A DNA stretch of 64,000 nucleotides, from contig JAGWMZ010000019.1 of assembly GCA_028871475.1 (NCBI GenBank), positions 16,102 to 80,101 of the forward strand. The letters run 5' to 3'. The notes under the pieces are model-generated. The model did not search any database. It was not told the origin of the DNA and saw only the letters and a list, made by a program, of their open reading frames with translations. Source of the stretch: Sphingomonadales bacterium. Lineage in GTDB: Bacteria > Pseudomonadota > Alphaproteobacteria > Sphingomonadales > Sphingomonadaceae. Shown one piece after another: positions 42,545 through 61,136 of this stretch (within the stretch, counting starts at the first letter, position 1; each line of letters opens with the position of its first letter). The position numbers and the translations under genes are program-made.

Positions 42545-42674
42545 GTCGTCGAAATAAACCCCTGATTTTAAAAGATTGACCTCATTTTCCACTTTCGGCG
42601 TCCGCCGAAGGTGTTCCGGGCCTTGTGCCGCATCATGTGACGCGTCGGCACAGGCCAGAACCGAGGACAATCCC

Positions 42675-44603
42675 ATGGCCATTCGCCAGTTGAATCTCAT
42701 CCGCCGCGGCGACACTTTCTATTATCGCGCAAGCTTCTCACTGGATGGAAAGGTTTCGGAGGTAAGGCTCTCGCTGAAGACCGGTGATCGTCGCGTCGCC
42801 CGTCAGCGTGCGATCGAGATGGATCGCCTTCTCAGGAGCCAGTGGCAGCGATTGTCGAGAATGAACGAAGGCATCTCCCCATCAGATCGGCTCTCCATCC
42901 TGCGCGAGGGCGCCATCAGGGCGCGCGACGCCTTCGAGCAGGTTTTCGCGGTTGAGCAGCACGACGGCTACGACGACGCCGATGAGGTTCAGCGCGAGAA
43001 CCTGCGCACGCTGCGCTCCATGGATCTGGTCGTCCGGGACATCTTCGCTCACGGCCTTGGTCCTTCCTTCGGCACGCACGACCATTTCCACTCCCGCTTC
43101 GTCGAAGGGATGCCGGATCTGTCCCTCGAGGACGGCGTCCGGGTGCAGGAGATCCTTTTCGTCGCCGAAGAACTGCGCACCGCGATCCAGAAGGGCGCCC
43201 ATCGGGCTCTGGTCCGTCGGAACCTGGAAGTGACCCCGGCTAACCTGACATTGGCACGTCAGCAGATGATGGCCGGCGTGGCGCTTGCTATGCGCGATCT
43301 CCAGAAGGAGATCGCGGAGCCCCACGCCAAGGTTGACGACATCCTGGCCTCGCTGTCGCTCGACGACCTGATCGCCGGCGCGGGGCGGGAGTCCGATCAG
43401 GCCTCGCAGCCGGCTCCGCCTCCTCCTGCCGCTCCACCGCCAGCGGCCAGGGACATGGCGCCCGCGGCTGCAATTGTCCTGTCCGAGCCGGTCACACCTT
43501 CCGCTTCGGCTATGTCCATCCGCCAGGCATCCGAGGCCTTTCTTGCCGCGAACCCCAAGCTTGACGCCGATGTCGCCGGCGCCCGCTGGACTCCGAAAAC
43601 AAGAAGCCAGTTCGAGGCTGCGATCTTCCTGGCGGACAAGCATTTCGGTTCAACGGCAGATATTCGGGGCATCGAAGAGACCCAACTCGCCAATTTCTTC
43701 CGGGTTCTGCGCAAGCTGCCCAGCTCCCATCACAAGACCCCGGCCCATGCGGGCATGACGCTCGCGGAAATCGGGGCTGCCAACAACGGCGACGGTCTGA
43801 GCCTGGCCACCACCAACCGCCACATGCGCTTCCTCAAGGCCGTCTTCCAATGGGTCGCCAAGCGGACGCCCGGGGCTCCGATCATCGAATGGTCCGCTTT
43901 CATCGAAGCCGACACCCGGCTGAAGCGCGACAAGCGTGACGCCTTCAAGGTCGACGAGTTGGAGAAGCTGTTCCACGGTCCCGTGTGGAGCGGGTCGGAC
44001 TCCCGCACCCGTCGCCTCAAGCCGGGGCACACGGTCTTCCAGGACGCTTGCTACTGGATCCCTTTACTTTTGACCTATACCGGCGCGCGGCGCGAGGAGG
44101 TCAGCAAGGCGATGGTGCAAGACGTCGAACTGATCGACGGCATCTGGTGCCTGCGCATCCGGGTCAGTGAAACCGGGCGGGTCAAGAACGTAGCGGCAGT
44201 CCGGGATGTCCCCGTCGCAACGGAACTCAGGAGGCTCGGCTTCTTGGAATTCGTCGAAGGCGTACGCGCCGAAGGGCACAGCGAGCTGTTCCCGGAACTC
44301 AGCACCGGGGGCGCCACCTACGGCGACGCCTTTTATAAGAGGTGGTGGCGGGCGTTCATGCGCGCTGATCTTGTGCCAATGGGCAAGGACATGCATTCGA
44401 TCAGGCATTTCGTCGCGGTACAGCTGGGAATAAAAGGCGTGTCCGAGGAGCGTCGCGCGGACCTGCTCGGCCACACCCTCGACAGCAGCGAGACGGTCAC
44501 GACCTATAGCGAGCGCGCCCCGCTCGAACTTCTTCTCAAGGTCGTGGACACCATTCCGTTGGTCACCAGGCATCTGAAGAGGATGCCGCTTCGACGACCG
44601 TAA
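42675..44603 (+). CDS. int: tyrosine-type site-specific integrase (large, with Pro/Ala-rich linker)
   Basis: The C-terminal catalytic region has ARREE (Arg), HSIRHF..VQL, LLGH and a downstream Tyr (TTYSER). ATG verified at 42675. Adjacent to the tRNA. Confidence 0.88.
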   Translation: MAIRQLNLIRRGDTFYYRASFSLDGKVSEVRLSLKTGDRRVARQRAIEMDRLLRSQWQRLSRMNEGISPSDRLSILREGAIRARDAFEQVFAVEQHDGYDDADEVQRENLRTLRSMDLVVRDIFAHGLGPSFGTHDHFHSRFVEGMPDLSLEDGVRVQEILFVAEELRTAIQKGAHRALVRRNLEVTPANLTLARQQMMAGVALAMRDLQKEIAEPHAKVDDILASLSLDDLIAGAGRESDQASQPAPPPPAAPPPAARDMAPAAAIVLSEPVTPSASAMSIRQASEAFLAANPKLDADVAGARWTPKTRSQFEAAIFLADKHFGSTADIRGIEETQLANFFRVLRKLPSSHHKTPAHAGMTLAEIGAANNGDGLSLATTNRHMRFLKAVFQWVAKRTPGAPIIEWSAFIEADTRLKRDKRDAFKVDELEKLFHGPVWSGSDSRTRRLKPGHTVFQDACYWIPLLLTYTGARREEVSKAMVQDVELIDGIWCLRIRVSETGRVKNVAAVRDVPVATELRRLGFLEFVEGVRAEGHSELFPELSTGGATYGDAFYKRWWRAFMRADLVPMGKDMHSIRHFVAVQLGIKGVSEERRADLLGHTLDSSETVTTYSERAPLELLLKVVDTIPLVTRHLKRMPLRRP

Positions 44604-46373: not shown

Positions 46374-46973
46374 ATGTCAGGCTTTTCGATCGATCTGTTC
46401 GGCGCTCCCCTGCTGCCTGGTCTCGAAGGGGCCGACGACATCCTTTCCGCAGACGAGGAAGCCGCGCTTATCGCCCGCATCGACGAGCAGGCGCTTTCAC
46501 CCTTCAAGTTCCAGGGATGGGAGGGCAAGCGCCTCACGACCTCCTTTGGCTGGAACTACGACTTCGAGAAGGGAACCGCGGCCCGCGCGGCTGAGATTCC
46601 GGACTGGCTTCAGGCCATCAAGGCGCGGGCCGCCGCCTTCGCCCGACTGCCCGACGGCGAACTCGTCCAGGCGCTGCTGATCCGCTACGATCCGGGCGCC
46701 GGGATCGGCTGGCACAGGGATCGCCCGATATTCGAGCACGTCGTCGGCATCTCGCTCGGCGTCCATGCCGTGATGCGGTTTCGCAGGCGCATCGAGAAGG
46801 GTTTCAACCGCGTCTCGGCGCCGCTCGCTCCCCGCTCGATCTACCATCTGAGCGGCGAAGCCCGGTACGAATGGGAGCACAGCATCGCCGAGATGGAGGA
46901 GACACGCTGGTCCATCACCTTTCGCAGCCTGTCGACGCGGGGCCGACGGGAACTCTATATCGAGCCCGCCTAG
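46374..46973 (+). CDS. alkB: AlkB-like Fe(II)/2-oxoglutarate-dependent dioxygenase
   Basis: IGWHRD (HxD), a distal His (EWEHSI) and RWSITFR (2OG-binding Arg), with the size typical of AlkB repair dioxygenases. Confidence 0.8.
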   Translation: MSGFSIDLFGAPLLPGLEGADDILSADEEAALIARIDEQALSPFKFQGWEGKRLTTSFGWNYDFEKGTAARAAEIPDWLQAIKARAAAFARLPDGELVQALLIRYDPGAGIGWHRDRPIFEHVVGISLGVHAVMRFRRRIEKGFNRVSAPLAPRSIYHLSGEARYEWEHSIAEMEETRWSITFRSLSTRGRRELYIEPA

Positions 46974-47140: not shown

Positions 47141-47833
47141 TCATCCCCGCCAACTGGCTGGGAATAGGCGCTTGAGCGCCTCCACCTTCGGCCGGTCGTT
47201 GATCACGATGTAGGGATAGGTCGGGTTGAGCGCATAGAAGTTCTGGTGGTAGGCCTCGGCCGGGAAGAAGTGCTTGTTGTCCTCGACGCGCGTGGCGATG
47301 GGACGGGCGAAGACGTGAGCCGCCGCGAGCTGCGCGATGTATGCGCGGGCGATCTTGTCCTGTGCCGGGGTCACCGGGAAGAGCGCTGAGCGGTACTGCG
47401 TCCCCACGTCGGGCCCCTGCCGGTTGACGAGCGTGGGATCGGCCACCACCGAAAAGTAGATGCGCAGCAGATCTGAATAGTCGACCTGGGCGGGATCGAA
47501 GACGACCTGGACGGATTCGGCGTGCCCTGTGCTGCCCGTCGAGACCGTCTCGTAGTCGGCGGTCGTCGAGTTGCCTCCCGCATAGCCCGGGGTGGCGCTG
47601 ATGACGCCCCGGACATGGGAGAAGACCCCCTGGACGCCCCAGAAGCAGCCGCCGGCGAAAACGGCGGTTTCGCGATGGCCCGACGCATGCTCGGCGGCGG
47701 CCGGCGGCGGCGCCAGCACGGCGGGCTCCGCGGCGATGCCGGGCGCCATGAAGGCGAGCGCGCCTCCACTGACGCACAACGCGGCGATGAAGGGCATGAA
47801 CCGGGATCTGCGATGGGTGCGAACAAGGGACAT
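47141..47833 (-). CDS. msrA: exported peptide-methionine (S)-S-oxide reductase
   Basis: GGCFWGVQGVF active-site motif and an N-terminal signal-like segment (RRSRFMPFIAALCVSGGALAFMAPGIAA). ATG verified at 47833. Confidence 0.88.
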   Translation of the reverse strand: MSLVRTHRRSRFMPFIAALCVSGGALAFMAPGIAAEPAVLAPPPAAAEHASGHRETAVFAGGCFWGVQGVFSHVRGVISATPGYAGGNSTTADYETVSTGSTGHAESVQVVFDPAQVDYSDLLRIYFSVVADPTLVNRQGPDVGTQYRSALFPVTPAQDKIARAYIAQLAAAHVFARPIATRVEDNKHFFPAEAYHQNFYALNPTYPYIVINDRPKVEALKRLFPASWRG

Positions 47834-48338
47834 GACGGTGAACTCCGTTGGGCGATCCCTCTCAACTACGAAGCGAAGCGGCGGAACGTCACACGGGCTG
47901 CCAAATTTTTTCCTCGATGTCCTCGCGTATCGCGGATGGATCAACCGATGCGGCCCACATCACGTCCGCAGTCGTCAACCTCAGTCGTCGCACCGGCCAG
48001 ACTTGGCGCGTTGCCTATCGGGAGGCTGTGCTTACGGCGATCAGGACAACTGCCGTGAACCGCCCTGCCGCCTTCGGGAAGGTAGCGCCATAGTTCCTCT
48101 CGGGATTGAGTGCGGAAAGCGCCTGACATTCCCTTTTCTGGTGATTGCTCACCTTCCTGCATGTCAGATCGCGCAAGCTACAGAGAACCATCGAAATCCA
48201 TCAAGTCTTGTAAAGACATCTAAAAAACGCATAATAATCTGACGTTATCCATTGGAATCCCTTTTCTTTTATCATGCTTTGTGTCCTGTCTCCTCCAAGC
48301 AACGGACCAAGGGAGATTTTAATCTAAACGACACCTTG

Positions 48339-48359
48339 AATGTCGGATAATCCGACATT
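48339..48359. promoter_or_regulatory. perfect 10-1-10 palindrome, candidate XRE operator
   Basis: AATGTCGGAT-A-ATCCGACATT lies 38 nt upstream of the first ATG of the operon, inside an AT-rich promoter-like stretch. Confidence 0.45.
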
Positions 48360-48396
48360 ATAAAGAAGGAATGTAGGCAAAACGCTCGAGGTCACG

Positions 48397-48741
48397 ATGG
48401 CAACGATCGCTCCCGCAATTCCGAAACCAGACATTTTTCCCCGTGACGACGTCATCAAAGCCTTGGTCGCAGAACTGCTCCAGAATGCAGTCGCCGAGGC
48501 GCAGGTCCGTGGCATCAATCTCCCGGCTGATGTGCCTGGGCGCATGACGGCAGCCGTTCCGATGGATTCACTTTCCGTCGTCGCGACGTTGGTCGCCGTC
48601 GAGGCCGTGGTGGGATTTGAACTGAAGGACAGTCTCGTCCGCACCGGTGGCTACGCCTCGGTCCAAGCTGCCGTCGACCATGTCGTGCCCCGCATCCAGG
48701 CTGTCTGGGAGAAGAAGAAAAGCAAGGGCAAGAAGGCGTGA
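48397..48741 (+). CDS. carrier-protein-like small protein (ACP/PCP-fold candidate)
   Basis: The segment PMDSLSVVATLVAVEAVVGFELKD...YASVQAAVDHV parallels ACP [24 protein letters not shown]...TTVQAAIDYI, including the DSL serine. Its stop overlaps the next start (GTGA). Confidence 0.5.
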   Translation: MATIAPAIPKPDIFPRDDVIKALVAELLQNAVAEAQVRGINLPADVPGRMTAAVPMDSLSVVATLVAVEAVVGFELKDSLVRTGGYASVQAAVDHVVPRIQAVWEKKKSKGKKA

Positions 48742-49106
48742 CCCGCGAAGCACCTCCGATCGAGGACGACGACGCGGCTCGACGCCAGCTCGGCGAGCGA
48801 CTGAAGGAGGCGCGAAAGTACCTCGGCCTGACGCAGGAGGAGGTTGCCGCATATCTTCGGATTGGACGCACCGCCCTCGGAGACATCGAGAGCGGTCAGC
48901 GCCGGGTCGAGGTCATCGAACTGACCCGGCTCGCGAAGCTCTACCGGCAATCGGTGGGATACTTCACCGGCGAGGAGGAATCGTCCGGACTTCCTGCCGA
49001 TGTGGCGCACCTCGCGCGCAGGGTGGCCGATCTGTCGCAAGACGATCGCGACGAACTGGCACGCTTCGCGGATTATCTCCGCACGCGGTCGAGCGGTGAG
49101 CGCTGA
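48738..49106 (+). CDS. XRE-family HTH regulator (ImmR-like)
   Basis: LGERLKEARKYLGLTQEEVAAYLRIGRTALGDIESGQR is a canonical HTH_3 domain. It lies immediately upstream of an ImmA/IrrE-type peptidase. Confidence 0.85.
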   Translation: MTREAPPIEDDDAARRQLGERLKEARKYLGLTQEEVAAYLRIGRTALGDIESGQRRVEVIELTRLAKLYRQSVGYFTGEEESSGLPADVAHLARRVADLSQDDRDELARFADYLRTRSSGER

Positions 49107-49109
49107 ACG

Positions 49110-50120
49110 GTGGCGGCAGATTATCCCAGCGCCGTCAGGGCTGGTGCGCTCGCGGCGGCGCGCCTGCACAACCAACTCGCTGTCCGCGCCGCCGTCGAGA
49201 CCGGAGGCGGTTCCATCGACGTCTTCAGCGCCATCAACGCGCTGGAGCTGCCGCTGCTCCTGCGCCCGCTGAAAGGCCTATTGGGCGCATATCTGAATCT
49301 ACCGGTGCCGGGCGTGCTGGTTACGACCGAACGGCAGATGAGCATCCAGAGGTTCACAGCCGCCCACGAACTCGGCCACTACTTCATGAAGCACGAGCCC
49401 AGCCTCGATGACGAGAGCATCCTGCGACGCATGCCGACGTCTCCCGAGCCCGGCGGACTGTTTCAGGAGGCCGAGGCGGATTCCTTCGCGGTCGCCTTCA
49501 TGATGCCGATGTGGCTGATCCTGATGCACGCTGCCCGACAGGGCTGGCAGGTCCCGGACTTCCAGCGTCCGAACATCGTGTATCAGGCGTCATTGCGCCT
49601 GGGCGCCAGCTACGAGGCCACCTGCAGGACACTCGCCCGTTACGATCTCATCTCCCAGTGGACTATGCACGACCTTCTCAACGTCAAGCCGCGCGAGATG
49701 AAGGTCGATCTCCTCCGGGAGTACCGCCCCCCCAACTACAGGGGCGACGTCTGGCTGCTCACCGCGAAGGACGCGGGGACGCGTATCGATGGCAGCCGCA
49801 ACGACGTGTTCGTGCTCAGATTGAACGAGCATAGTGGTGGTGGCTATCTTTGGGACTTCGAACAGCTGGCGCAAAGTGGTTTCGCCATTGTCCGGGACGA
49901 CCGGGAAGCGATCGATCCCGAGGGGATCGGCAGCCCGGTGATCCGACGCGTGACCGCGGCGATCGAGGATGCCGACCGGGGGCGTATGTCGTTGAGCGAA
50001 CGGCGTCCATGGCAGCCCTCGACCGCGATCGCGGATCTGACCTTCGACTATGATGTCACCGGTCCCGAGCGGGCTGGCCTATCGCGTGCGGAGCGCCGCG
50101 CTCGCCTCGAGGTGGCATGA
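49110..50120 (+). CDS. ImmA/IrrE-family (M78) zinc metallopeptidase fused to a chagasin-like (I42) cysteine-peptidase inhibitor domain
   Basis: HELGHYFMKH zinc motif at 49365-49379 in a COG2856-like context. The C-terminal 105 aa or so carry the three chagasin loop motifs in order: GGGYLWDF (cf. NPTTGYxW), IGSPV (cf. GxGG) and RRPWQP (RPW). GTG start. Confidence 0.75.
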   Translation: MAADYPSAVRAGALAAARLHNQLAVRAAVETGGGSIDVFSAINALELPLLLRPLKGLLGAYLNLPVPGVLVTTERQMSIQRFTAAHELGHYFMKHEPSLDDESILRRMPTSPEPGGLFQEAEADSFAVAFMMPMWLILMHAARQGWQVPDFQRPNIVYQASLRLGASYEATCRTLARYDLISQWTMHDLLNVKPREMKVDLLREYRPPNYRGDVWLLTAKDAGTRIDGSRNDVFVLRLNEHSGGGYLWDFEQLAQSGFAIVRDDREAIDPEGIGSPVIRRVTAAIEDADRGRMSLSERRPWQPSTAIADLTFDYDVTGPERAGLSRAERRARLEVA

Positions 50121-50803
50121 TGGCAACGATTGAGATCGAGGTCGATTTGCGGGAGCGTTTCGGCCCCGCCCGCGACCAGGGCCCGCGACCGACTTGCCTG
50201 GCTTTTGCGACAAGCGACAACCACGCCGGACTTCGCGCGGGCTGGCAGCCGCTCTCGTGTGAATATCTCTACTTCCACGCTCAGCGCCGCGCCGGCCGGT
50301 TGCCAGGGCAAGGGGCCGTGCTCCCGGCTATGCTGGAGGCCCTGCGCGGTGACGGGCAGCCGGTTGAAGCCGGCTGGCCCTATCTGGACGCCTCGCCGCC
50401 GGAAGGCGACGCTTGGAAGCCGCCAATCGAGGTCGGATCATGCTACGGGCGCGTCGGTGTCGCGTCGCAGCCGGACGTTAGCGGCGTTCGCAGCATGCTC
50501 TCGCTGGGCCATCCCATAGTCGTGCTTTCGATGCTCTCGCGCTCATTCTTCAGGCCGGTTGACGGCGCGGTTGCGCCCGTACCGGGAGAGCAGCCGGAAC
50601 CGAGCCAGCGCCATGCGGTCGTCGCCGTCGGCCACGGCAGGGTTGACGGTGAACCGGCGACGCTCGTTCGGAACAGCTGGGGACCCGGGTGGGGGCTCGA
50701 TGGGCACGCATGGCTCACAGACGCATTTCTCGCACCCCGCATCTTCGCCACAGCCACGTTAATGGAGGAAGTGAATGTACCTTCCCGTGCCATCGCAGCC
50801 TGA
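50117..50803 (+). CDS. papain-like (C1 family) cysteine peptidase, no signal peptide, no prodomain
   Basis: DQGPRPTCLAF parallels NQGSCGSCWAF (oxyanion Gln plus catalytic Cys27). HAVVAVGHG parallels HAVAAVGYG. VRNSWGPGWGLDGHAWL parallels IKNSWGTGWGENGYIRI. ATGA overlap with the preceding gene. Confidence 0.78.
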   Translation: MMATIEIEVDLRERFGPARDQGPRPTCLAFATSDNHAGLRAGWQPLSCEYLYFHAQRRAGRLPGQGAVLPAMLEALRGDGQPVEAGWPYLDASPPEGDAWKPPIEVGSCYGRVGVASQPDVSGVRSMLSLGHPIVVLSMLSRSFFRPVDGAVAPVPGEQPEPSQRHAVVAVGHGRVDGEPATLVRNSWGPGWGLDGHAWLTDAFLAPRIFATATLMEEVNVPSRAIAA

Positions 50804-51554
50804 CTGCATCTCCGCATGGCTCAAGGCGGTTCGCCTCGTCGACGCCGAGACCGGCCACCACGCCCACAACGTGATCATCGACGTCGAGGATCCGACGGCG
50901 CGGGCGTCGATGTCGGACCCTGCGGTTGCGGCGGTCAGCCAGTTCCTCGCCGACCACGACAAGAAGCCTGTCGAGACCGTGGCGAACACCATCTTCCCGG
51001 CTGGGCTCTACACCCGATACGGCGCCCCCGCCTTCTTCGACAGGTTCCGGGAGGATGTCCTTCCGAAGGTCCGTCGCTCCGAGGATTGGTCCGGCTACTA
51101 TTTCGAACGGATGATGCATCTGCCTCAGGTCGAGGGCGATCCGATCAACCAGCTCTGGGAGATCGTCGGGCGGCTGCGAAACCCCAATGTGCGGGCGCTG
51201 AACAAGTTCGAGCTGAGCATCTTCGATGCCGCGCGGGACGTGAACGACTCGCCATACGGCGGACAGTGCCTGAGCTTCGCCAGCCTGAAGCTGGTGGGGA
51301 AGCCCGATGCGCGACGGCTCACGATGACGGCCTTCTACCGCAACCACTTCTACATCGAGAAGCTTCTCGGCAACCTCATCGGCCTGGGACGGCTACTCAA
51401 GTTCCTGGCGGTGGAAGGACGAGTCGAAATGGGCTCGCTCACGATCGTGTCAACCCACGCGGAGATCGACATGGCGAAATGGACGCGCGACGACTTCCTC
51501 GAACTGGTGCGAACCGCCGATCAGGCGAACGCCGAAGTCTTGGCCGCTGTGTAG
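50775..51554 (+). CDS. thymidylate synthase / dCMP hydroxymethylase-fold protein (divergent)
   Basis: INQLWEIVGRLRNPNVRA...GGQCLSF...LTMTAFYRNHFYIEKLLGNLIGLGRLLKFLA follows the ThyA pattern DQL...LK.NP.SRR...PCH.F.QF...L.C.LYQRS.D..LG.PFNIASYALL. GGAGG lies 6 nt upstream of the ATG. 29-nt overlap with the peptidase gene. Confidence 0.55.
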   Translation: MYLPVPSQPDCISAWLKAVRLVDAETGHHAHNVIIDVEDPTARASMSDPAVAAVSQFLADHDKKPVETVANTIFPAGLYTRYGAPAFFDRFREDVLPKVRRSEDWSGYYFERMMHLPQVEGDPINQLWEIVGRLRNPNVRALNKFELSIFDAARDVNDSPYGGQCLSFASLKLVGKPDARRLTMTAFYRNHFYIEKLLGNLIGLGRLLKFLAVEGRVEMGSLTIVSTHAEIDMAKWTRDDFLELVRTADQANAEVLAAV

Positions 51555-52219
51555 GCGTTCTCGAAGGGCAGCTTCGGCTCGTCCTCGCCGGACACCCCGT
51601 AGAGGCCGAACATGCTATCGATGAACTCGCGCTGCCCGCCATAGCTCGGGTGCCGCACCCCTTCGGTCGGAAGACCGAATTCCGTGAGCGCCAGCTGCGC
51701 ATCCCGTCCGATCGCGATGATCTGCCGCGGCCTGAGCATCTCGATCAGCGCCTCGAGAAGGGGCCAGGTCGCAACGCGTTCCGCGCGCGTGTGGCAGCGG
51801 TTCGAAAGCGGACTATTGGGCTCGTGAGGGTGGAACGGGAACACGTTCCACAGCATCACCGGCTGGCCGATCCGGCTCAGAACCCTCCATGTCACGGCAG
51901 CCGTCCGCTCGGCCACGACTGGCCCCTCCGTCGCCCGCGCCAGCTCGATCCCGCCCATGAGCGCTGCGGCGCTATCCAGGTGGACCTCGTCGGTAAGGGG
52001 AACGCCAGTCCGGCGCCCTCCCCGGTATCCGAGATCCCGCGCGATCCAGATCGTTTCAACTCTCGTCTCCAGCGCGGCGTCCAGCATCCGCTCCAGATTG
52101 GTCCGCCGCCGCGCCGCCGCGTCCTCGCGGTCATGGACCGGGCACACGTCTGACCACGGATTGAAAACCGAAGGCAGGCGGGCCTCCGAGAGGGCGGTTA
52201 CGAATTCACGGGGCGTCAC
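51521..52219 (-). CDS. uracil-DNA glycosylase-superfamily protein (divergent motif A, HPS motif B)
   Basis: IARDLGYRGGRRTGVPLTDE sits at the motif-A position, with NVFPFHP and GVRHPSYGG (HPS motif B). The GTG start at 52219 overlaps the upstream stop (GTGA). Confidence 0.65.
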   Translation of the reverse strand: MTPREFVTALSEARLPSVFNPWSDVCPVHDREDAAARRRTNLERMLDAALETRVETIWIARDLGYRGGRRTGVPLTDEVHLDSAAALMGGIELARATEGPVVAERTAAVTWRVLSRIGQPVMLWNVFPFHPHEPNSPLSNRCHTRAERVATWPLLEALIEMLRPRQIIAIGRDAQLALTEFGLPTEGVRHPSYGGQREFIDSMFGLYGVSGEDEPKLPFENAYTAAKTSAFA

Positions 52220-53391
52220 TGGGGCAAGTCCTTGATGCGCAGACGGCGGTTGTTCAGGTCTATCGTCACGCGGCCGCGCCGATGCTGCTGGAGGAAGCGG
52301 AACGCCGCGTAGCCCTGGAGGATAGCGTCCTCCCAGAGCCACAATGGGCATTGCGCCACCTCGTAGCCGGCGACGAACTGGCGCACATGCTTCAACATGT
52401 CCAGCGGTAATCCTCCGACCTTCACGTGCGCAAAGAACTCAAGCTGTTGCGCCTGGCCGAACAGCCAGGAGGTGACCCCCTCCTCGATCAGGATCGCCCG
52501 GGCGCCATCCTCCACCTCGTCGATTCGCGGTGCGCTCTTCCGCTTAAGGCGCAGGAGGGACCGGAGGACGGGCGACCAGCCGAGTACCGCGACATAGGCG
52601 TAGTGGAACACGTCATGGAAGCGATAGTCGTCTGGCTCGGCGGAATTGTCGGTGAGCCGATCGCCGACGAACGCCCCGCTCGACCTCTGATATACGTAAG
52701 TCTGCGACCGCACGGTGCGTTCGTAAATGTCGATCGTCATCCTTCTGGGAAGCTGCTCCTCGGGATCCATCGCCGCATCGAAAGACGCCGGATACACCCG
52801 CTCGCGAGGCCAGCGGTCGAAGATCTTGTGGAGATTCTTGACGGCCGCGGCCTCCATGGTCACGCCGGATTCGTTCGCCGCCTGTATGAGCCTCCCCATC
52901 ACCGTTACCAGCCTCCGCCGCAGTTCGGCGGTGACGACGGGGAGCCCCGGACGGAAATCGGCCAGCAGGCCGCCGACTTCGCCGGCAAGCGTCAGCAGGG
53001 TGTTCTCGAATGCCGTGGTCGGGGCCTTCACAAGCGGAATGTGGGCCGGCTGAAGGCTGTGGAACGTAAGGGCGTCGTTGCCGCCCATCACCCACTCCCC
53101 GCCCTCGCGGATGGCTGCCGCGGCAATGTCCGACAGGGAGAAGCGGGTTCGCCGTGAGATGGCGGCTAGATACCAGAGGACGTCGCCGAGCTCCTCGGCC
53201 ACCGCGTCTGCATATCCAAGGTAGGACGCCGCATCACGCTGCTTCTTCTTGGCTACGGAGAGCAGACTTCCCGTCTCTCCGAAGAGCCCAAGCATGGAGA
53301 AGCCGAGGGCTTGGCCCCCTCCCCGCTGGTCCGTCTTGGCCGCCTGCTTGGCGTAGTCCGCCACGGTCAGGGCCTCGAAGTCCTCTCCCAT
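52216..53391 (-). CDS. MazG-like all-alpha NTP pyrophosphohydrolase domain protein with about 230-aa C-terminal region of unknown function
   Basis: The N-terminal domain carries LGLFGETGSL and AVAEELGDVLWYLAAI (EExxD metal motif). A second helical segment ends KNLHKIFDRW. No motif was recognised in the C-terminal half. Confidence 0.65.
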   Translation of the reverse strand: MGEDFEALTVADYAKQAAKTDQRGGGQALGFSMLGLFGETGSLLSVAKKKQRDAASYLGYADAVAEELGDVLWYLAAISRRTRFSLSDIAAAAIREGGEWVMGGNDALTFHSLQPAHIPLVKAPTTAFENTLLTLAGEVGGLLADFRPGLPVVTAELRRRLVTVMGRLIQAANESGVTMEAAAVKNLHKIFDRWPRERVYPASFDAAMDPEEQLPRRMTIDIYERTVRSQTYVYQRSSGAFVGDRLTDNSAEPDDYRFHDVFHYAYVAVLGWSPVLRSLLRLKRKSAPRIDEVEDGARAILIEEGVTSWLFGQAQQLEFFAHVKVGGLPLDMLKHVRQFVAGYEVAQCPLWLWEDAILQGYAAFRFLQQHRRGRVTIDLNNRRLRIKDLPQ

Positions 53392-55376: not shown

Positions 55377-56150
55377 ATGTCCTTGCCTTCTGCCTTCCCT
55401 GCTGCCTCCCGCGACCAACTCGATGCCCTGCGCGCCGAGCTTTCCAGTGCGCGCAGACTGCGGGGGCCGGCTCTGCCCTTTGGCGTGCCGATGCTCGACG
55501 ACCGGCTGGCCGCTCAGGGGCTGGATGGCGCGGGGCTCCACGAGATCGCCGCAGCCTCGTCGCGCCTGGGCGATGACGCTGCAGCCTCCCTCTTCGCCGC
55601 CGGCATCGCCGCACGCTTCGCCGATCAGGGCAACTTCACCGTCCTGTGGGCCCTGTCGCGCTTCGATCTCTATGCTCCCGGCCTGGAACAGGTCGGCCTT
55701 GCTCCCTCGCAACTGCTCTACGCCCAGGGCAGGAACGATCAGGAGGTGCTGGCGGTCGCCGAGGACGCCCTGCGCGACGGCTCGCTCGCCTGCGTGATCG
55801 CGGAAGTGAAGGCGGCCGACATGACCGCCACGCGCCGCCTTCAGCTGGCGACCAGCGACGGCAAGACGCCCATGCTGCTCTACCGGCGACACCGGGCCCG
55901 TGACCACTGCCCGCTGACGCAGAACTCGTCGGCCATGACGCGGTGGCGGATCGGCTGCCTGCCATCCCTTCCACTGCCCCACCCTGGCGTCGGCCGGTCC
56001 CGCTGGTCGGTCGAACTCGTCCGCCAGCGTGGCGGCAATCCCTTTTCCCTCGACTTGGATGCCTGCGATGACAAGGGTTGCCTCGCTCACCCTGCCCTTT
56101 CTGCCGATCGAGCGATTGCGTCGGCTGGAAAGGCCAGTCGCGTGGCCTGA
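55377..56150 (+). CDS. imuA: ImuA, RecA-fold SOS mutagenesis protein
   Basis: It is the first gene of the imuA-imuB-dnaE2 arrangement. It has the G.P.LD..L..GL..G.LHE pattern and a W.VEL.R.RGG tail. Confidence 0.78.
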   Translation: MSLPSAFPAASRDQLDALRAELSSARRLRGPALPFGVPMLDDRLAAQGLDGAGLHEIAAASSRLGDDAAASLFAAGIAARFADQGNFTVLWALSRFDLYAPGLEQVGLAPSQLLYAQGRNDQEVLAVAEDALRDGSLACVIAEVKAADMTATRRLQLATSDGKTPMLLYRRHRARDHCPLTQNSSAMTRWRIGCLPSLPLPHPGVGRSRWSVELVRQRGGNPFSLDLDACDDKGCLAHPALSADRAIASAGKASRVA

Positions 56151-57876
56151 ACCCATCGCCTTCGGCGCGCCTGCGCCCTCCGTCATCGACGACGATCCCG
56201 GCGCCTGCTCGGTGCCGCGTGGCGGTGGCTGGCGCCCCGGCGCGCGATGGGCGCGCGATGGCGCGCTTGCATCAGACAGGGCGAGCCAAGCAGAGATCGA
56301 CACCCTGCCGGCGCACCAGCGCCCGACCATGCGCGAGATGGGCCGCCGCAGCGAAGGTGCGGATCATCCCTTCAAGGCCATGCCAGCTGATGAGGGATCG
56401 CCTGCGCCTGCACCGCGCCTGACCTGGGCCAACCTCTGGGGCACGCCGACCGTGCTGGTCACCCGGACCGGCCAGCGCGACGTGATCACCGCAGCCTGCC
56501 CGGTCGCCATCGGCCTCGGCCTGCATCTCGGCATGGCTGCGGCCCATGCCCGCGCGCTGGTGGCCGATCTGGAAGTGCGCGAGGCGGAACCGCAAAAGGA
56601 CCGCGCTTGGCTCGATCGGCTCGCGCTCCATGCCGTCAGACATTGGACACCCGGCGCCAGCGTTTCAGGGGACGACGGCCTATGGCTGGACCTCTCGGGC
56701 ACCAGCCATCTCTTCGGAGGTGAGGAGCGCTTCTGCCGCCGACTGCTGCGTTTCCTGGCCCGCCTTGGCTTCTCCGCACAAATCGCCATCGCGGGGGCTC
56801 CCGGGGCGGCCAATGCGATGGCGCGCCACGGCGGCAAGGCCATAACGCTGGTCCATCCGGGCCGTGAGGCCGATGCTATCGCATCGCTGCCGCTGGAGGC
56901 GCTGCGGCTTACGCCCGATGTGTTGACGGCTGCAGCACGCGTCGGCCTGGAGCGCATCGCCGATCTCTACCCTATGCCCCGTGGACCTCTGGCCAAACGG
57001 TTCGGCATCGCCACCGTGACCCGCCTCGATCAGGCGCGCGGCATCGTCGCCGAGCCCATCGTGCCGGTGGTGCCCTTCGAGACACCGCAGGCCGAGCGCC
57101 GGCTGCTGGAGCCCATCGGCACGGCCGAGGCGATCGCCCAGGTGATCGGCGATCTGGTCGACGATCTGATGGGCCAGCTGCAGGAGCGCAGGCTGGGCCT
57201 GCGCACCGCCCTGCTCACCTGCCTAGTCGTCGATGGCGGCCAGCAGCGGATCGGGATCGGCACGGCCAAGGCCAGCCGCGATGCCCGCCACCTCAAGCGC
57301 ATGCTCGCCATGCGGATCGATCGCATCGACCCGGGCTTGGGCATCGAGGCGATGACGCTGGTGGCGCCGCGCGTCGAGGACCTGCAGCCTGAAGCCATTG
57401 CCGCCAAGCTGGGCACCGGCGACCGCCCAGCGGAGCTGGCGCCGCTGGTGGATCAGCTCTCTGGCCGGATCGAGCCGCAGGGCTTGTTCCGCATCGAGCC
57501 GAAGGAGAGCGATGTCCCTGAGCGAGCGACCCGTCGCGTCGATCCGTTGTCAAAACCTACAGGCTGGCCGGCATGGAAGCGCCCCGTCAGGCTGCTGGCC
57601 CGCCCGGAACCGCTGGCCCGCGTCATGGCCCTGCTTCCAGACGCGCCACCGCGCCGCTTCGAATGGCGCGGAGCGTCCTATCAGGTTGCCAGTGGCGAAG
57701 GGCCTGAGCGTATCCATGGCGAATGGTGGCGCAACGAGAGGGAGATGTGGGCGGTCCGGGACTATTTCATGGTCGAGGCCCAGACCGGCGAGCGCTTCTG
57801 GCTGTTCCGGCGCGGAGACGGCGTGGAGCCCCCCACAGGCGATTTGTCCTGGTATCTCCATGGGCTGTTCGGCTGA
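56068..57876 (+). CDS. imuB: ImuB, Y-family DNA polymerase-like protein
   Basis: Begins [17 protein letters not shown]. It has the length and position typical of ImuB, and its stop overlaps the dnaE2 start (TGATG). Confidence 0.82.
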
Positions 57877-60800
57877 TGGCCACCTATGTCGAACTTCAGG
57901 TGACCAGCCACTTCTCGTTCCTGCGCGGCGCCTCGGCACCCGAGGAGCTGTTCTCGAAGGCGGCGGCTCTCGGTCACAAGGCGCTGGGCCTGACCGACTG
58001 GGGAAGCGTGGCCGGCGTTGTCCGTGGCTGGACCGGCCAAAAGGACACAGGCGTTCGCATGATCCCCGGCGCGCGGGTCGATCTGACCGACGGCAAGGCA
58101 CTGCTGCTCTATCCCATGAACCGCGAGGCCTGGTCCCGGCTCACCCGCCTGCTCTCCGTGGGCAAGGCGCGCGGCGGCAAGGGCCGCTGCCTGCTCGACT
58201 GGAGCGATGTGGCCGCCCATGCCGAGGGGTTGATCGCCAACCTGGTCCCGGACATGCCCGACGAGCGAACCGTGTCCGACTTGAAGGCCTTGCGAGAGGC
58301 GTTTGGCTCGCATGGCTATTGCGCCCTGTCCTTTCGACGACGCCCCGGCGATGCCGGACGCCTCTATGCCCTAGATGCCATGGCCCGCACCGCTCGCGTG
58401 CGCTGCGTGGCGACCGGCGATGTCCTCTATCACGCCCCCGAGCTTCGCCCCCTGCAGGACGTGCTGACAGCCATCCGTGCCGGCTCAACCATCGACGCAC
58501 TGGGCTTTCGGCGCGAGCGCTACATGGACCGGAACCTGAAATCCCCGGAGGAAATGGAAAGGCGCTTCGCCTCCTATCCCGATGCTATCCAGGCCAGCGC
58601 CGACATCGCGGCCCAATGCACCTTCGATCTGGGCGAGATCCGCTACCAGTACCCCTATGAGCAGGTCATGGCCGAGCGCAGCGCCCAGGATGCGCTCGCG
58701 GCGCTGACCGAGGAGGCCGCCGCCGCTATGTTCCCGAGCGGTCTGCCCGCCCCCTACCGTAGCCAGATCGACCATGAGCTGCGGCTGATCGACAGCCTGG
58801 GCTATGCCCCCTATTTTCTCACCGTCCATTCCATTGTGGCAGAAGCCCGGCGGCGGGGCATCCTCTGCCAGGGACGCGGCTCGGCGGCCAACAGCTGTGT
58901 CTGCTACATGCTGGGCATCACCTCGATCGATCCGATCCAGCATGAGCTGCTCTTCGAGCGCTTCGTCTCGGGCGAGCGCAAGGAGCCACCCGACATCGAT
59001 GTGGACTTCGAGCATGAGCGCCGCGAGGAGATCATCCAGTGGATCTATGAGACCTATGGCCGCCATCGCTCGGCGCTGACCGCCGTCGTCACCCGCTACC
59101 GCACGCGCGGCGCGGTGGCAGAAGTGGGCAAGGCACTCGGTCTGCCGCGCGATCTCACCAAGATGCTCACCGGCCTGGTCTGGGGCTGGTCGGTCGACGG
59201 TATCTCGGATGAGCAGATCGAGAGCCTGAACCTCAATGCCCAGGATCACCGTCTGCGACTATGCCTCGATCTCTCCCGGCAGCTGATCGGCACGCCGCGC
59301 CATCTCTCGCAGCATCCTGGCGGCTTCGTGCTAACGCAGGATCGACTCGATGACCTCGTGCCCATCGAGCCAGCCCGCATGGCCGATAGGCAGATCATCG
59401 AGTGGGACAAGGACGATATCGACGCGCTCAAATTCATGAAGGTCGATATCCTGGGGCTGGGCATGCTGGGCTGCATGAACCGGGCCTTCAACATGCTGGC
59501 GGACATGAAGGGCATCGCCATCGGCATGGCCGATCTCCAGAAGGACGACCCTGCCGTCTATGCGATGATCCAGAAGGCGGACACGCTGGGCACCTTCCAG
59601 ATCGAGAGCCGGGCCCAAATGTCGATGCTACCCCGGATCAAGCCCGCTAAATTCTATGATCTCGTGATCGAGGTGGCCATTGTGCGCCCCGGGCCCATCC
59701 AGGGCGATATGGTCCATCCCTATCTGCGGAGGCGAGAAGGTCGCGAGAAGCCCGAGTACCCGAAACCAGAATTACGCGCCGTGCTCGAAAAGACGCTGGG
59801 CGTGCCCCTCTTTCAGGAGCAGGCGATGAAGGTCGCCATCGTCGGCGCTGGCTTCACCCCCGCCGAGGCCGATCAATTGCGCCGGGCCATGGCGACCTTT
59901 AAGATGACGGGCGGCGTCAGTCATTTTTACGACCAGCTGGTCGGCGGTATGGTCTCGCGCGGCTACAGTCAGGACTTTGCCGAGCGCACATTCAAGCAGA
60001 TCGAGGGATTCGGGAGCTACGGCTTTCCCGAGAGCCATGCCGCCAGCTTCGCCAAGATCGCCTATGCTTCATGCTGGATGAAGCACCACCACCCCGACGT
60101 CTTCTGCGCCTCGTTGCTCAATGCCCAGCCCATGGGATTCTACGCCCCGGCCCAGATCGTGGCGGATGCCAGGAAGCACGGGGTGGAGGTTCGGCCCGTC
60201 TCGATCAACCACAGCCATTGGGACTGTACGCTCGAATACACCAACCGCCGGCACCTGGCCGTGCGCCTCGGCTTCCGGCAGGTGCGCGGGCTGGCCAACC
60301 TGCACGGCGCGCGGATCGTGGCCGCCAGAGGCGATCAGCCCTATGGCAGCGTGGAGGAGGTCTGGCGGCGGGCGGGCGTGCCGCGCGCGGCGATCGAGCG
60401 CCTGGCCGAAGCCGATGCCTTCTCGGCCATCGCGCAGGACCGGCGGCAAGGGTTATGGAAGGTCAAGGGACTGGGTGATGCCCCCTTGCCCCTCTTTGCA
60501 GCAGCGGATGCCAAAGAGGAGCAGTTCTCACCTGAAGGTGTCGAGCCGACCGTGACGCTCATGCCGCTGACCGAAGGACGGGAGGTGGTCGAGGATTATC
60601 GCTCGATCCAGCTCTCCCTGCGGGCCCATCCGGTGAGCTTCCTGCGCGAGGAGCTGGCGGGCATGAAGATCGTGTCCTGCGGCGATCTGCCCAGCCAGCG
60701 CGATGGCCGCAATCTGGAGGTGGCCGGCATCGTGCTGGTCCGCCAGCGCCCCGGCAGCGCCAAGGGCGTGCTCTTCGTCACCATCGAGGACGAGACAGGC

Positions 60801-61136
60801 GTGGCCAACGCCATCCTGTGGCCCGACAAGTTCGAGACCTATCGGCGCCAGATCATGTCGGCCTCGATGATCGCGGTGCGGGGGCGCCTGCAGAAGGAGG
60901 GCGAGATCATCCATGTCATCGCTGACAGGATCACGAACCTGGACGCCATGCTGCGCTCGATCGGGAGGCAGGACCTGCAGCTACCTCACGGGCGCGGCGA
61001 TGGCGCGGCTCAGGGCGGTGGCCCCGACCCTCGCGACCCAGGTTTTCCGAAGGGCCGCGTGCTTTCAGCTCCCGCCTTCAGGACCGATGGGAAGCAGGAT
61101 GAGATACTGCCCGTCCGCAGCCATGATTTTCATTGA
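57876..61136 (+). CDS. dnaE2: error-prone DNA polymerase DnaE2 (ImuC)
   Basis: Begins [20 protein letters not shown] (PHP domain). Also has the Pol III alpha core ([22 protein letters not shown]) and an OB fold. Confidence 0.95.

Follow-up and report, generated by a model that had tools for sequence, protein, structure and literature searches.

What does a chagasin-type inhibitor of cysteine peptidases do at the end of an ImmA/IrrE-type metallopeptidase, encoded immediately upstream of a papain-family peptidase? The question is raised by a 64,000-nucleotide stretch of a Sphingomonadales genome (contig JAGWMZ010000019.1, positions 16,102 to 80,101; the window), in which an initial annotation had read the C-terminal part of a metallopeptidase as an inhibitor domain of the I42 (chagasin) family and the next gene as its target. 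We favour, with slightly more confidence than doubt, the reading that the locus is a type II toxin–antitoxin-style module resembling the Rosmer and CapH–CapP systems, with the I42 domain as antitoxin of the C1 peptidase and the C1 peptidase as effector. The two genes and their parts are as follows.

49110–50120, plus strand: M78 (ImmA/IrrE)–I42 fusion, 336 aa, GTG start (Pfam, PADLOC, profile comparison, AlphaFold2)
49365–49379, plus strand: HELGH zinc-binding/catalytic motif, residues 86–90 (H86, E87, H90), invariant in close homologues
49392–49460, plus strand: loop joining HExxH to the E120 helix, residues 95–117, HEPSLDDESILRRMP...
49737–50054, plus strand: chagasin/ICP (MEROPS I42) immunoglobulin-like inhibitor domain, residues 210–315 (Pfam, PDB profile, Foldseek)
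49827–49853, plus strand: equivalent of loop L2, EHSGGGYLW against chagasin NPTTGYxW
49923–49940, plus strand: equivalent of loop L4, GIGSPV, residues 272–277, against chagasin GxGG; G274 in 64/64 relatives
50004–50012, plus strand: equivalent of loop L6, RPW within ERRPWQP, residues 297–303
50055–50120, plus strand: C-terminal tail, DVTGPERAGLSRAERRARLEVA plus stop, 21 residues, helix at 326–335, invariant in close homologues
50117–50803, plus strand: C1 (papain-family) cysteine peptidase, 228 aa (227 from the NCBI start at 50120)

The inhibitor domain, proposed at 49743–50063 (residues 212–318), was recognized by Pfam, by profile comparison and by predicted fold. Inhibitor_I42 (PF09394) matched residues 230–316 of the whole protein at 30.4 bits (E=4.7e-7, cut-off 27.2). 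The C-terminal 125 aa alone scored 33.5 bits (E=5.2e-8) over profile positions 4–91 of 91, and scores among relatives reached 43.5 bits (Haloarcula). A PDB profile match to amoebiasin-2/EhICP2 (3m86, E=4.9e-7) covered residues 214–311 with the three loops in register. In the AlphaFold2 model, the predicted local distance difference test score (pLDDT) was 96–98 over residues 211–320, and Foldseek superposed the C-terminal domain on EhICP2 (E=8e-8, TM 0.79, root-mean-square deviation 2.6 Å) and on chagasin, free or with cathepsin L or falcipain (TM 0.78), the overall TM range being 0.78–0.81. The predicted fold is the immunoglobulin-like β-sandwich of chagasin.

The motifs on which the proposal had rested, namely L2, GIGSPV, ERRPWQP and the upstream HELGH, were all found in place, with LRLNEHSGGGYLWDF at residues 236–250. 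The conservation counts given here and below refer to a diverse alignment (A2) of 64 full-length relatives, 26–57 % identical to the query, in which GYxW, xG(G/S/A) and RPW are almost unchanged throughout. In L2, G245 and W248 are each present in 64/64 relatives, E240 in 57/64 and Y246 in 54/64; in L6, W301 is kept in 62/64, P300 in 60/64 and R299 in 55/64, with cysteine in place of R299 in six members, five of these in a clade with a fused helix–turn–helix (HTH) domain and an inactivated M78 site. These loop residues are the most conserved of the whole protein, H86 and E87 being kept in only 53/64. The C-terminal domain is a genuine I42/chagasin domain, beyond a chance motif match. It shares with the known family (chagasin, EhICP1/2, Pseudomonas ICP, Cip1) the immunoglobulin-like fold, a Pfam score above cut-off and the loop order G-Y-x-W, x-G-G/S, R-P-W, and that family is known to target C1 peptidases, to which the product of the adjoining gene belongs here. 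It differs in being the C-terminal domain of a 336-aa metallopeptidase rather than a free protein of ~110 aa, in being cytoplasmic where the known ones are secreted, periplasmic or organellar, in an L2 of the form E-H/N-S-G-G-G-Y-x-W instead of NPTTGYxW, and in its extra 21-residue tail.

The fusion to an ImmA/IrrE-type metallopeptidase also held. The protein, which a public NCBI entry from a Sphingomonadales metagenome-assembled genome (P0001) matches exactly from end to end, comprises a peptidase at ~1–135, a helical linker at 136–205, the I42 domain at 210–315 and a conserved tail at 316–336, with no signal peptide. Peptidase_M78 matched residues 80–175 at 32 bits (Pfam cut-off 22), and the HExxH motif is followed by E120. 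The best PADLOC match was capP (7.5e-13), with RmrA next; a profile of 24 homologues matched an IrrE orthologue and CapP in the PDB over the N-terminal part. An AlphaFold2 model built on the alignment of 64 diverse relatives (pLDDT 94.5, predicted template modelling score (pTM) 0.91) superposed on IrrE/PprI over residues ~1–170 in Foldseek. By analogy with the CapP zinc ligands H97/H101/E128 (preprint 10.64898/2026.05.16.725639), E120 (49467–49469) is the probable third zinc ligand; it is invariant in close homologues and present in 51/52 HExxH-positive relatives.

Between HExxH and E120, the loop of residues 95–117 (SLDDESILRRMP) corresponds in position to the 'cysteine switch loop' of CapP and contains no cysteine. 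It is highly conserved though disordered in the model, with residues 101–110 forming the sole low-confidence stretch (pLDDT<50). H95 is found in 52/52 and D100 in 50/52 HExxH-positive relatives, and both co-vary with the presence of HExxH. This loop could be an autoinhibitory switch of Asp/His type, or a cleavage site. At the other end of the protein, G323 of the tail is kept in 61/64 and R329 in 50/64 relatives, most of which end in ...RRxLLEAA. The tail ending resembles ssrA-type degrons.

The next gene was confirmed to encode an enzyme of the class that chagasin-type domains inhibit. Peptidase_C1 matched at 34.4 bits against a Pfam cut-off of 20.7, and PDB matches comprised cathepsins L/H/K, caricain, papain-family enzymes and Der f 1. 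Its catalytic residues Gln21, Cys27 (50195–50197), His166 (50612–50614) and Asn186, together with Trp188, align with papain Gln19/Cys25/His159/Asn175, and the Gln/Cys/His/Asn/Trp set is kept throughout 42 distinct partners and every divergent lineage examined. Because its alignment to the mature enzymes begins with their first residues at about residue 8, the peptidase has neither a signal peptide nor a prodomain; the N-terminal inhibitory prodomain that marks papain-family zymogens is absent. Homologue length was 224–229 aa in 120/120 of those listed.

The pairing of the two proteins is carried by gene adjacency and by the conservation of the inhibitory loops. The C1 start overlaps the fusion stop codon by 4 nt (ATGA), and across the window and nine loci with both ends given it lies −4 to +1 nt from that stop. 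The C1 gene adjoins the fusion gene in the window and in 91/97 other loci fetched, and in three of these 91 it is decayed or truncated; of the remaining six, one is a contig too short to show the neighbour and five were not examined. Represented among the loci are Alphaproteobacteria, a haloarchaeal plasmid and, at 30–35 % identity, metagenomic lineages without taxonomic placement. The three protein families compared are close in size, with 1813, 1778 and 1414 members. One C1 sequence (P0460) was found on 997 contigs under the name 'MULTISPECIES ... [Pseudomonadota]', and the cassette genes of ~28 retrieved genome loci (loci are numbered L below) gave identical tblastn identities and coordinates, two signs that a single element has recently spread by horizontal transfer.

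The initial annotation had called for a database survey of further ImmA–I42 fusions, and such proteins proved to be numerous. A single-sequence search with the I42 domain alone against 1.8 billion cluster representatives returned 272 clusters at E<=1e-3, and among the best 150 of these ~64 full-length fusions were found. Full-length forms are either ~321–357 aa long (I42 at ~205–335) or 453–485 aa long (I42 at ~335–450), the longer being single HTH–M78–I42 chains with an N-terminal HTH. No canonical ICP stood out among the I42-domain relatives in these 272 clusters. Matches of ~130–150 aa with an I42 domain only were considered as stand-alone inhibitors and set aside, as 8/8 inspected begin inside the fusion and look like truncated calls.

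The HExxH motif is lost in 12/64 relatives, most of which also lack H95, D100 and E120. Identity to the window protein in these relatives is 23 % over the M78 domain and 34 % over the I42 domain. Their I42 loops are retained, with a C1 gene directly downstream wherever the neighbourhood is readable. The C1 peptidase beside such fusions has intact catalytic residues in two bare HTH / dead-M78–I42 / C1 modules (L095/L096) and in a locus where a fused HTH–dead-M78–I42 protein is followed by C1 (L097); it is decayed in L089 and L094. The inhibitor and the C1 peptidase are taken as the conserved core because dead-M78 lineages still adjoin intact C1 genes. Sequence conservation indicates that the invariant unit is the I42 domain, an active C1 peptidase and an HTH, with M78 catalysis as an add-on that most, though not all, lineages retain. 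In three metagenomic loci, C1 is truncated, or carries a Cys-to-Phe change and a stop, after HTH–M78–I42 (L090 6432–6794, L089 8337–8492, L094 2190–2594); these are decayed effector copies beside an inhibitor protein that persists.

How such a pair might be controlled is suggested by the genes and sites upstream, which are listed below.

48336–48364, plus strand: promoter with embedded operator, TTGAAT (−35), palindrome, TATAAA (−10), 17-nt spacer
48339–48359, plus strand: operator, a perfect 10+10 palindrome, AATGTCGGAT-a-ATCCGACATT, filling the −35/−10 spacer
48738–49106, plus strand: XRE-family HTH repressor, CapH-like, 122 aa, overlapping the stop codon of the preceding gene (g1) by 4 nt

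The repressor matched Pfam HTH_3 (2.2e-11) and PADLOC capH (1.3e-12, residues 18–114), followed by RmrA N-termini. It is the second of five translationally coupled genes, in the order acyl carrier protein (ACP)-like g1, XRE repressor, M78–I42, C1 and thymidylate synthase (TS)-fold g5; the first two overlap by 4 nt, the XRE and M78–I42 genes are 3 nt apart, and C1 overlaps M78–I42 by 4 nt and g5 by 29 nt. The −35 and −10 hexamers were assigned by reading the sequence, a consensus scanner having passed over the promoter as its −10 ends in A. The palindrome occurs once in the window against an expectation of 0 by chance, and a TTG(C/A)ATGTCGGAnnnTCCGACATTATA layout lies upstream of g1 in 19/19 non-redundant related loci.

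In the toxin–antitoxin reading, an XRE dimer seated on the palindrome between −35 and −10 would hold the operon low, as its anatomy suggests, and the overlapping stop and start codons would supply M78–I42 and C1 together. By homology with chagasin complexes, the L2/L4/L6 wedge would plug the active-site cleft of the C1 peptidase, taking the place of the missing prodomain. Some signal would then make the M78 domain cut the XRE repressor, as in ImmA/ImmR, IrrE/DdrO and CapP/CapH; M78–I42 may also be degraded, removed, titrated or outlived. Freed C1 would cleave cellular proteins, those of an invader, or those of its operon partners. As I42 stands at the GAF position of the IrrE/CapP scaffold, its occupancy by C1 may in addition feed back on M78 activity.

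This differs from the self-cleavage switch put forward in the initial annotation, in which cleavage of the fusion would unleash the C1 peptidase. That part of the proposal is partly argued against: the 12/64 relatives without HExxH keep their I42 loops and, where readable, the C1 gene, so that M78 catalysis is not the universal releaser of the inhibitor. By analogy with the related switches, the M78 domain moreover has an obvious other candidate substrate in the co-operonic CapH-like XRE repressor.

The toxin–antitoxin reading draws on the minimal modules, which have the layout of a type II antitoxin (a DNA-binding and a neutralising part) followed by a toxin. The gene layout of type II systems fits generally, most clearly in L095–L097, and the operator lies inside the promoter. 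Several observations weigh against it. The L2 loop EHSGGG has neither of the NPTTG threonines (N-P-T-T becomes E-(H/N)-(S/A)-(G/S)). In chagasin, these two threonines tune affinity and the W93A substitution lowers affinity for cathepsin L 100-fold (PMC2607524). Strictly coupled 1:1 synthesis leaves the step that frees C1 unexplained. The tight linkage to the ACP-like and TS-fold genes suggests that C1 may act on a specific in-pathway substrate and not be a generic toxin. None of C1, g1, g5 and the two convergent genes beyond them (g6 and g7) is covered by a PADLOC model, and a role in defence is suggested by context only. Finally, the M78 site is under strong purifying selection within the clade of the window, which indicates at the sequence level that M78–I42 does more there than neutralise C1.

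In a different relation between the two domains, the I42 domain would chiefly be the input domain of an M78 anti-repressor, and the binding or release of C1 would allosterically switch whether M78 cuts the XRE protein. On this view C1 serves to regulate or guard rather than as the effector, and is released, for example, on engagement by a phage protein, a substrate or an inhibitor. We regard this as unlikely, though the GAF replacement and the switch-like loop make it attractive. CapP consists of a peptidase (1–141), an HTH-like region (142–182) and a GAF domain (182–288), and the GAF domain of IrrE/CapP forms a groove for single-stranded DNA that activates the enzyme (preprint 10.64898/2026.05.16.725639). 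In Foldseek superpositions, I42 stands exactly at this GAF position. In CapP/IrrE the activating ligand binds the peptidase–GAF groove and moves the autoinhibitory loop. The conserved disordered loop of the fusion is in the corresponding position, and its residues H95 and D100 are linked to the active site. The pTM suggests a fixed interdomain geometry, and the XRE partner and its operator are conserved. However, dead-M78 lineages keep the I42 loops and C1, intact in two, so that control of M78 is not a universal role, and conservation of the full catalytic apparatus of C1 everywhere is unexpected for a mere regulatory subunit.

The remaining genes of the cassette are of interest for a second alternative.

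48397–48741, plus strand: g1, ACP-like protein, 114 aa, first gene of the operon, with invariant Asp57-Ser58-Leu59
50775–51554, plus strand: g5, TS-fold enzyme, 259 aa, overlapping the 3' end of C1 by 29 nt
51521–52351, minus strand: g6, uracil-DNA glycosylase (UDG)-superfamily-like, Pfam UDG 25.9 bits against a cut-off of 24.3
52216–53391, minus strand: g7, MazG pyrophosphohydrolase fused to MazG_C (MazG_C 6e-81, MazG 1.9e-5)

In the PDB, nearly all matches of the g1 profile were ACPs (best E=0.006), and the DSL motif aligned on the phosphopantetheine serine; no Pfam match was found for g1. Phosphopantetheinyl transferase (PPTase) genes adjoin g1 orthologues in 3/3 plasmid loci (L091 4397–5485, L093 4785–5642 and L092 4835–5627, being Haloarcula, Bradyrhizobium and Rhizobium plasmids), which supports the assignment of g1 as a putative carrier protein. 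For g5, a sequence-only PDB search found no thymidylate synthase match and no Pfam family was assigned, with NCBIfam TIGR03283 matching weakly (2.8e-6); the fold was seen via AlphaFold2 (pLDDT 86.8) and Foldseek, which gave 316 PDB matches at E<=1e-3. The best 50 of these 316 were thymidylate synthases, phage dCMP hydroxylase, CMP hydroxymethylase and one designed protein. The g5 motifs GGQC165LS (Cys165) and YRNH are invariant, and g5 co-occurs with C1 even at 34–36 % identity (36 % in the distant locus L086).

The five-gene operon sits within a seven-gene cassette, opposite the convergent UDG-like and MazG–MazG_C pair. The 3' end of g6 overlaps g5 convergently by 34 nt (51521–51554), and no clear terminator separates the two. 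In its longest reading frame g6 overlaps g7 by 136 nt (52216–52351), and its real start is probably internal, judging from orthologues called at 223–235 aa. It is annotated as uracil-DNA glycosylase in L092 and L093, and no sequence relative was found in the PDB. The g7 protein matched phrog_229 at 2.4e-50, and no pairwise similarity was found between MazG_C and the HMUDK family. Because no second copy of the operator occurs in the window, including near the convergent pair, g7–g6 are not obviously under the same repressor.

With these neighbours, C1 could instead be an enzyme that processes or matures the surrounding nucleotide or DNA-modification pathway, with I42 timing the step and no toxin–antitoxin logic. 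For example, the phosphopantetheinylated ACP-like protein might be cleaved or unloaded by C1, or the TS-fold enzyme might depend on C1 for its activation. The coupled five-gene operon recurs in 85/85 close loci and on the Rhizobium, Bradyrhizobium and Haloarcula plasmids, with PPTase genes adjoining in the three divergent plasmid loci. The accessory genes moreover all encode pyrimidine-nucleotide enzymes (MazG–MazG_C, UDG-like, dCTP deaminase, TS, 5-hydroxymethyldeoxyuridine (5-hmdU) DNA kinase, dTMP kinase). The stand-alone HTH / I42 / C1 modules L095–L097 stand against it, as they contain no ACP-like, TS-fold or nucleotide genes, and described thymidine hypermodification pathways include no protease (PMC8989533); we consider this explanation rather improbable. 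Like the anti-repressor alternative, it is compatible with I42 binding C1, and the two differ from the toxin–antitoxin reading only in the purpose of the complex.

That the I42 domain neutralises foreign papain-like proteases of a host, phage or competitor, with adjacency to C1 incidental, would suit the characterised bacterial chagasin-like proteins in the searchable literature, which hit extracellular host proteases (Pseudomonas Cip1, Cpi1), but it is highly improbable for a fusion without a signal peptide that is joined to a cytoplasmic regulator, adjoins C1 with overlapping stop and start codons from Alphaproteobacteria to Halobacteria, and has no phage record with an I42 domain.

The toxin–antitoxin reading places the locus near several known systems. 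With CapP/CapH, IrrE(PprI)/DdrO and ImmA/ImmR it shares an HExxH...E peptidase with helical linker, an adjoining XRE gene, a palindromic operator inside the promoter and a loop at the CapP switch-loop position. It differs in that I42 replaces the C-terminal GAF domain, that the switch cysteine of CapP is absent, and that a protease gene follows in the same operon. With neither a GAF domain nor a cysteine switch, the fusion is, strictly speaking, neither a CapP nor an IrrE; some CapP homologues likewise lack the switch cysteine (preprint 10.64898/2026.05.16.725639). ImmA-domain proteins are an established hub antitoxin class in the RosmerTA phage-defence systems, in which HTH+M78 antitoxins are paired with diverse toxins, several such systems protecting against phages (PMC10440598). 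As in RosmerTA and the 'ImmA hub' of type II toxin–antitoxin systems (NetFlax D25), an M78 protein, to which an HTH may be fused, has as its partner a downstream effector that varies; the HTH–M78–I42 single chains correspond to the RmrA architecture plus I42, and the loci likewise lie among mobile-element and defence genes. PADLOC RmrA models matched the XRE (4.4e-12) and the M78 (1e-8) proteins, both only partially. Unlike RosmerTA, the locus has a recognizable inhibitor domain of known mechanism as putative neutraliser and a papain-family protease as predicted 'toxin', neither of which turned up in the literature searched, and in this clade the pair belongs to a five-gene operon.

A co-encoded intracellular inhibitor of a papain-like cysteine protease is familiar from the staphostatin–staphopain pairs, where the inhibitor is co-transcribed with the protease and shields the cytoplasm of the producer. 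Staphostatin, however, has an unrelated lipocalin-like barrel fold, staphopain is secreted with a prodomain, and the pair has no link to a transcriptional switch.

A further comparison is with the thymidine/cytidine hypermodification sets of phages, with which the cassette and its relatives share TS-family enzymes, 5-hmdU DNA kinase, MazG, dCTP deaminase and dTMP kinase. Here the genes are found on conjugative plasmids and integrative and conjugative elements (ICEs) of bacteria and an archaeon rather than in phages, no aGPT-Pplase was seen in them, and a protease–inhibitor pair and an ACP-like protein are present that are absent from described pathways (PMC8989533). MazG+MazG-C(+UDG) is an unvalidated defence system predicted by DefensePredictor, without protease-inhibitor genes, and no I42, C1 or papain strings occur in the DefensePredictor supplements (PMC13092281). 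Text searches for MazG_C and PF18722 gave no literature match. Literature on chagasin/I42-like proteins and ImmA yielded only secreted, membrane-anchored or parasite inhibitors, and we found no paper describing the M78–I42 fusion, the C1 pairing or the cassette. Public pipelines already label the family 'protease inhibitor I42 family protein' or 'ImmA/IrrE family metallo-endopeptidase'. On the sequence evidence, the novelty would lie in the neutralising domain and in the class of effector of an ImmA-type toxin–antitoxin or regulator module.

The distribution of the module was determined from a scan of one genome per species, ~185,600 species-representative genomes in all, using an alignment of 25 sequences. 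Relatives of the fusion were found in 346 of these genomes, a scan in which dead-M78 lineages are under-sampled as its pattern contains AHE and favours HExxH-positive members. Genes g1–g5 are in the same order in 80/80 genome loci retrieved and in five metagenome or genome contigs; of the convergent pair, g6 is present in 81/85 and g7 in 80/85 loci, the rest being truncated. Distant loci keep a core of g1-like / (HTH) / M78–I42 / C1 / g5 with exchanged accessories, as on the three plasmid loci of Rhizobium, Bradyrhizobium and Haloarcula.

The Haloarcula marina plasmid NZ_CP100410.1 carries the g1 / HTH / M78–I42 / C1 / g5 core at 71064–73341 (L091), with M78 and I42 scores of 52 and 43.5 bits; as this plasmid is haloarchaeal, the module crosses the boundary between Bacteria and Archaea. 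Its accessories are an HMUDK-like kinase (HMUDK_hel 2.2e-66), dTMP kinase and a restriction endonuclease. Those of L086 are a thymidylate synthase, 5-hmdU DNA kinase (HMUDK_hel 5.5e-104) and a Metallophos protein, with an adjoining integrase, and dCTP deaminase is added on the Rhizobium and Bradyrhizobium plasmids. The accessory regions (L086 6070–10315, L091 2044–3678, L093 10547–11212, L003 2901–5114) vary, their genes all encoding pyrimidine-nucleotide or DNA enzymes, and a 735-aa Metallophos protein recurs in ~12 loci.

The fusion was found on 17 plasmids, of which 11 are conjugative. No phage genome with the I42 domain and no viral predicted structure with the two-domain architecture was found. 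The flanks of 21 non-redundant loci were enriched in type IV secretion system coupling proteins, relaxase, ArdC, ParB, recombinases and transposases, with scattered defence genes (Thoeris, AbiEii, MADS components, PDC candidates); Shedu and CRISPR adaptation genes occur in other loci. In conjugative elements, the probable role of the module is to control DNA modification or a form of defence directed at nucleotides.

A more specific proposal, which we hold as tentative and doubtful, is that the five-gene core with its interchangeable partners (MazG–MazG_C, UDG-like, dCTP deaminase, TS, 5-hmdU DNA kinase, Metallophos) forms an unrecognised system of conjugative elements of Bacteria and Archaea, in which a modified pyrimidine is made or planted and the output is gated by a two-protease switch. 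The modified pyrimidine may protect the DNA of the element or poison an invader, and the chagasin-type domain may hold the papain-like protease until the XRE/M78 circuit fires.

If the toxin–antitoxin reading is true, the fusion would be the first example of a chagasin-type inhibitor that, within a prokaryotic cell, serves a papain-like protease encoded beside it as antitoxin or safety catch, and the first ImmA/IrrE-type switch with its GAF sensor swapped for a protease-binding domain. It would also answer how an M78 'antitoxin' neutralises its partner in Rosmer-like systems, and would add a protease to the list of toxin–antitoxin and defence effectors. The module is not rare, being found in 346 genomes and on conjugative plasmids and ICEs and reaching haloarchaea, and its uncharacterised ACP-like, TS-fold and nucleotide-enzyme operon may encode new nucleotide chemistry.

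In the window, the cassette is flanked by an MsrA gene (47141–47944) and by a gene for an AlkB-like 2-oxoglutarate/Fe(II) oxygenase (46374–46973). Further upstream lies a gene for a 675-aa protein with a weak phage-integrase match (42576–44603), and downstream is an error-prone polymerase cassette of imuB (IMS+DUF6504) and dnaE2 (56029–61136).

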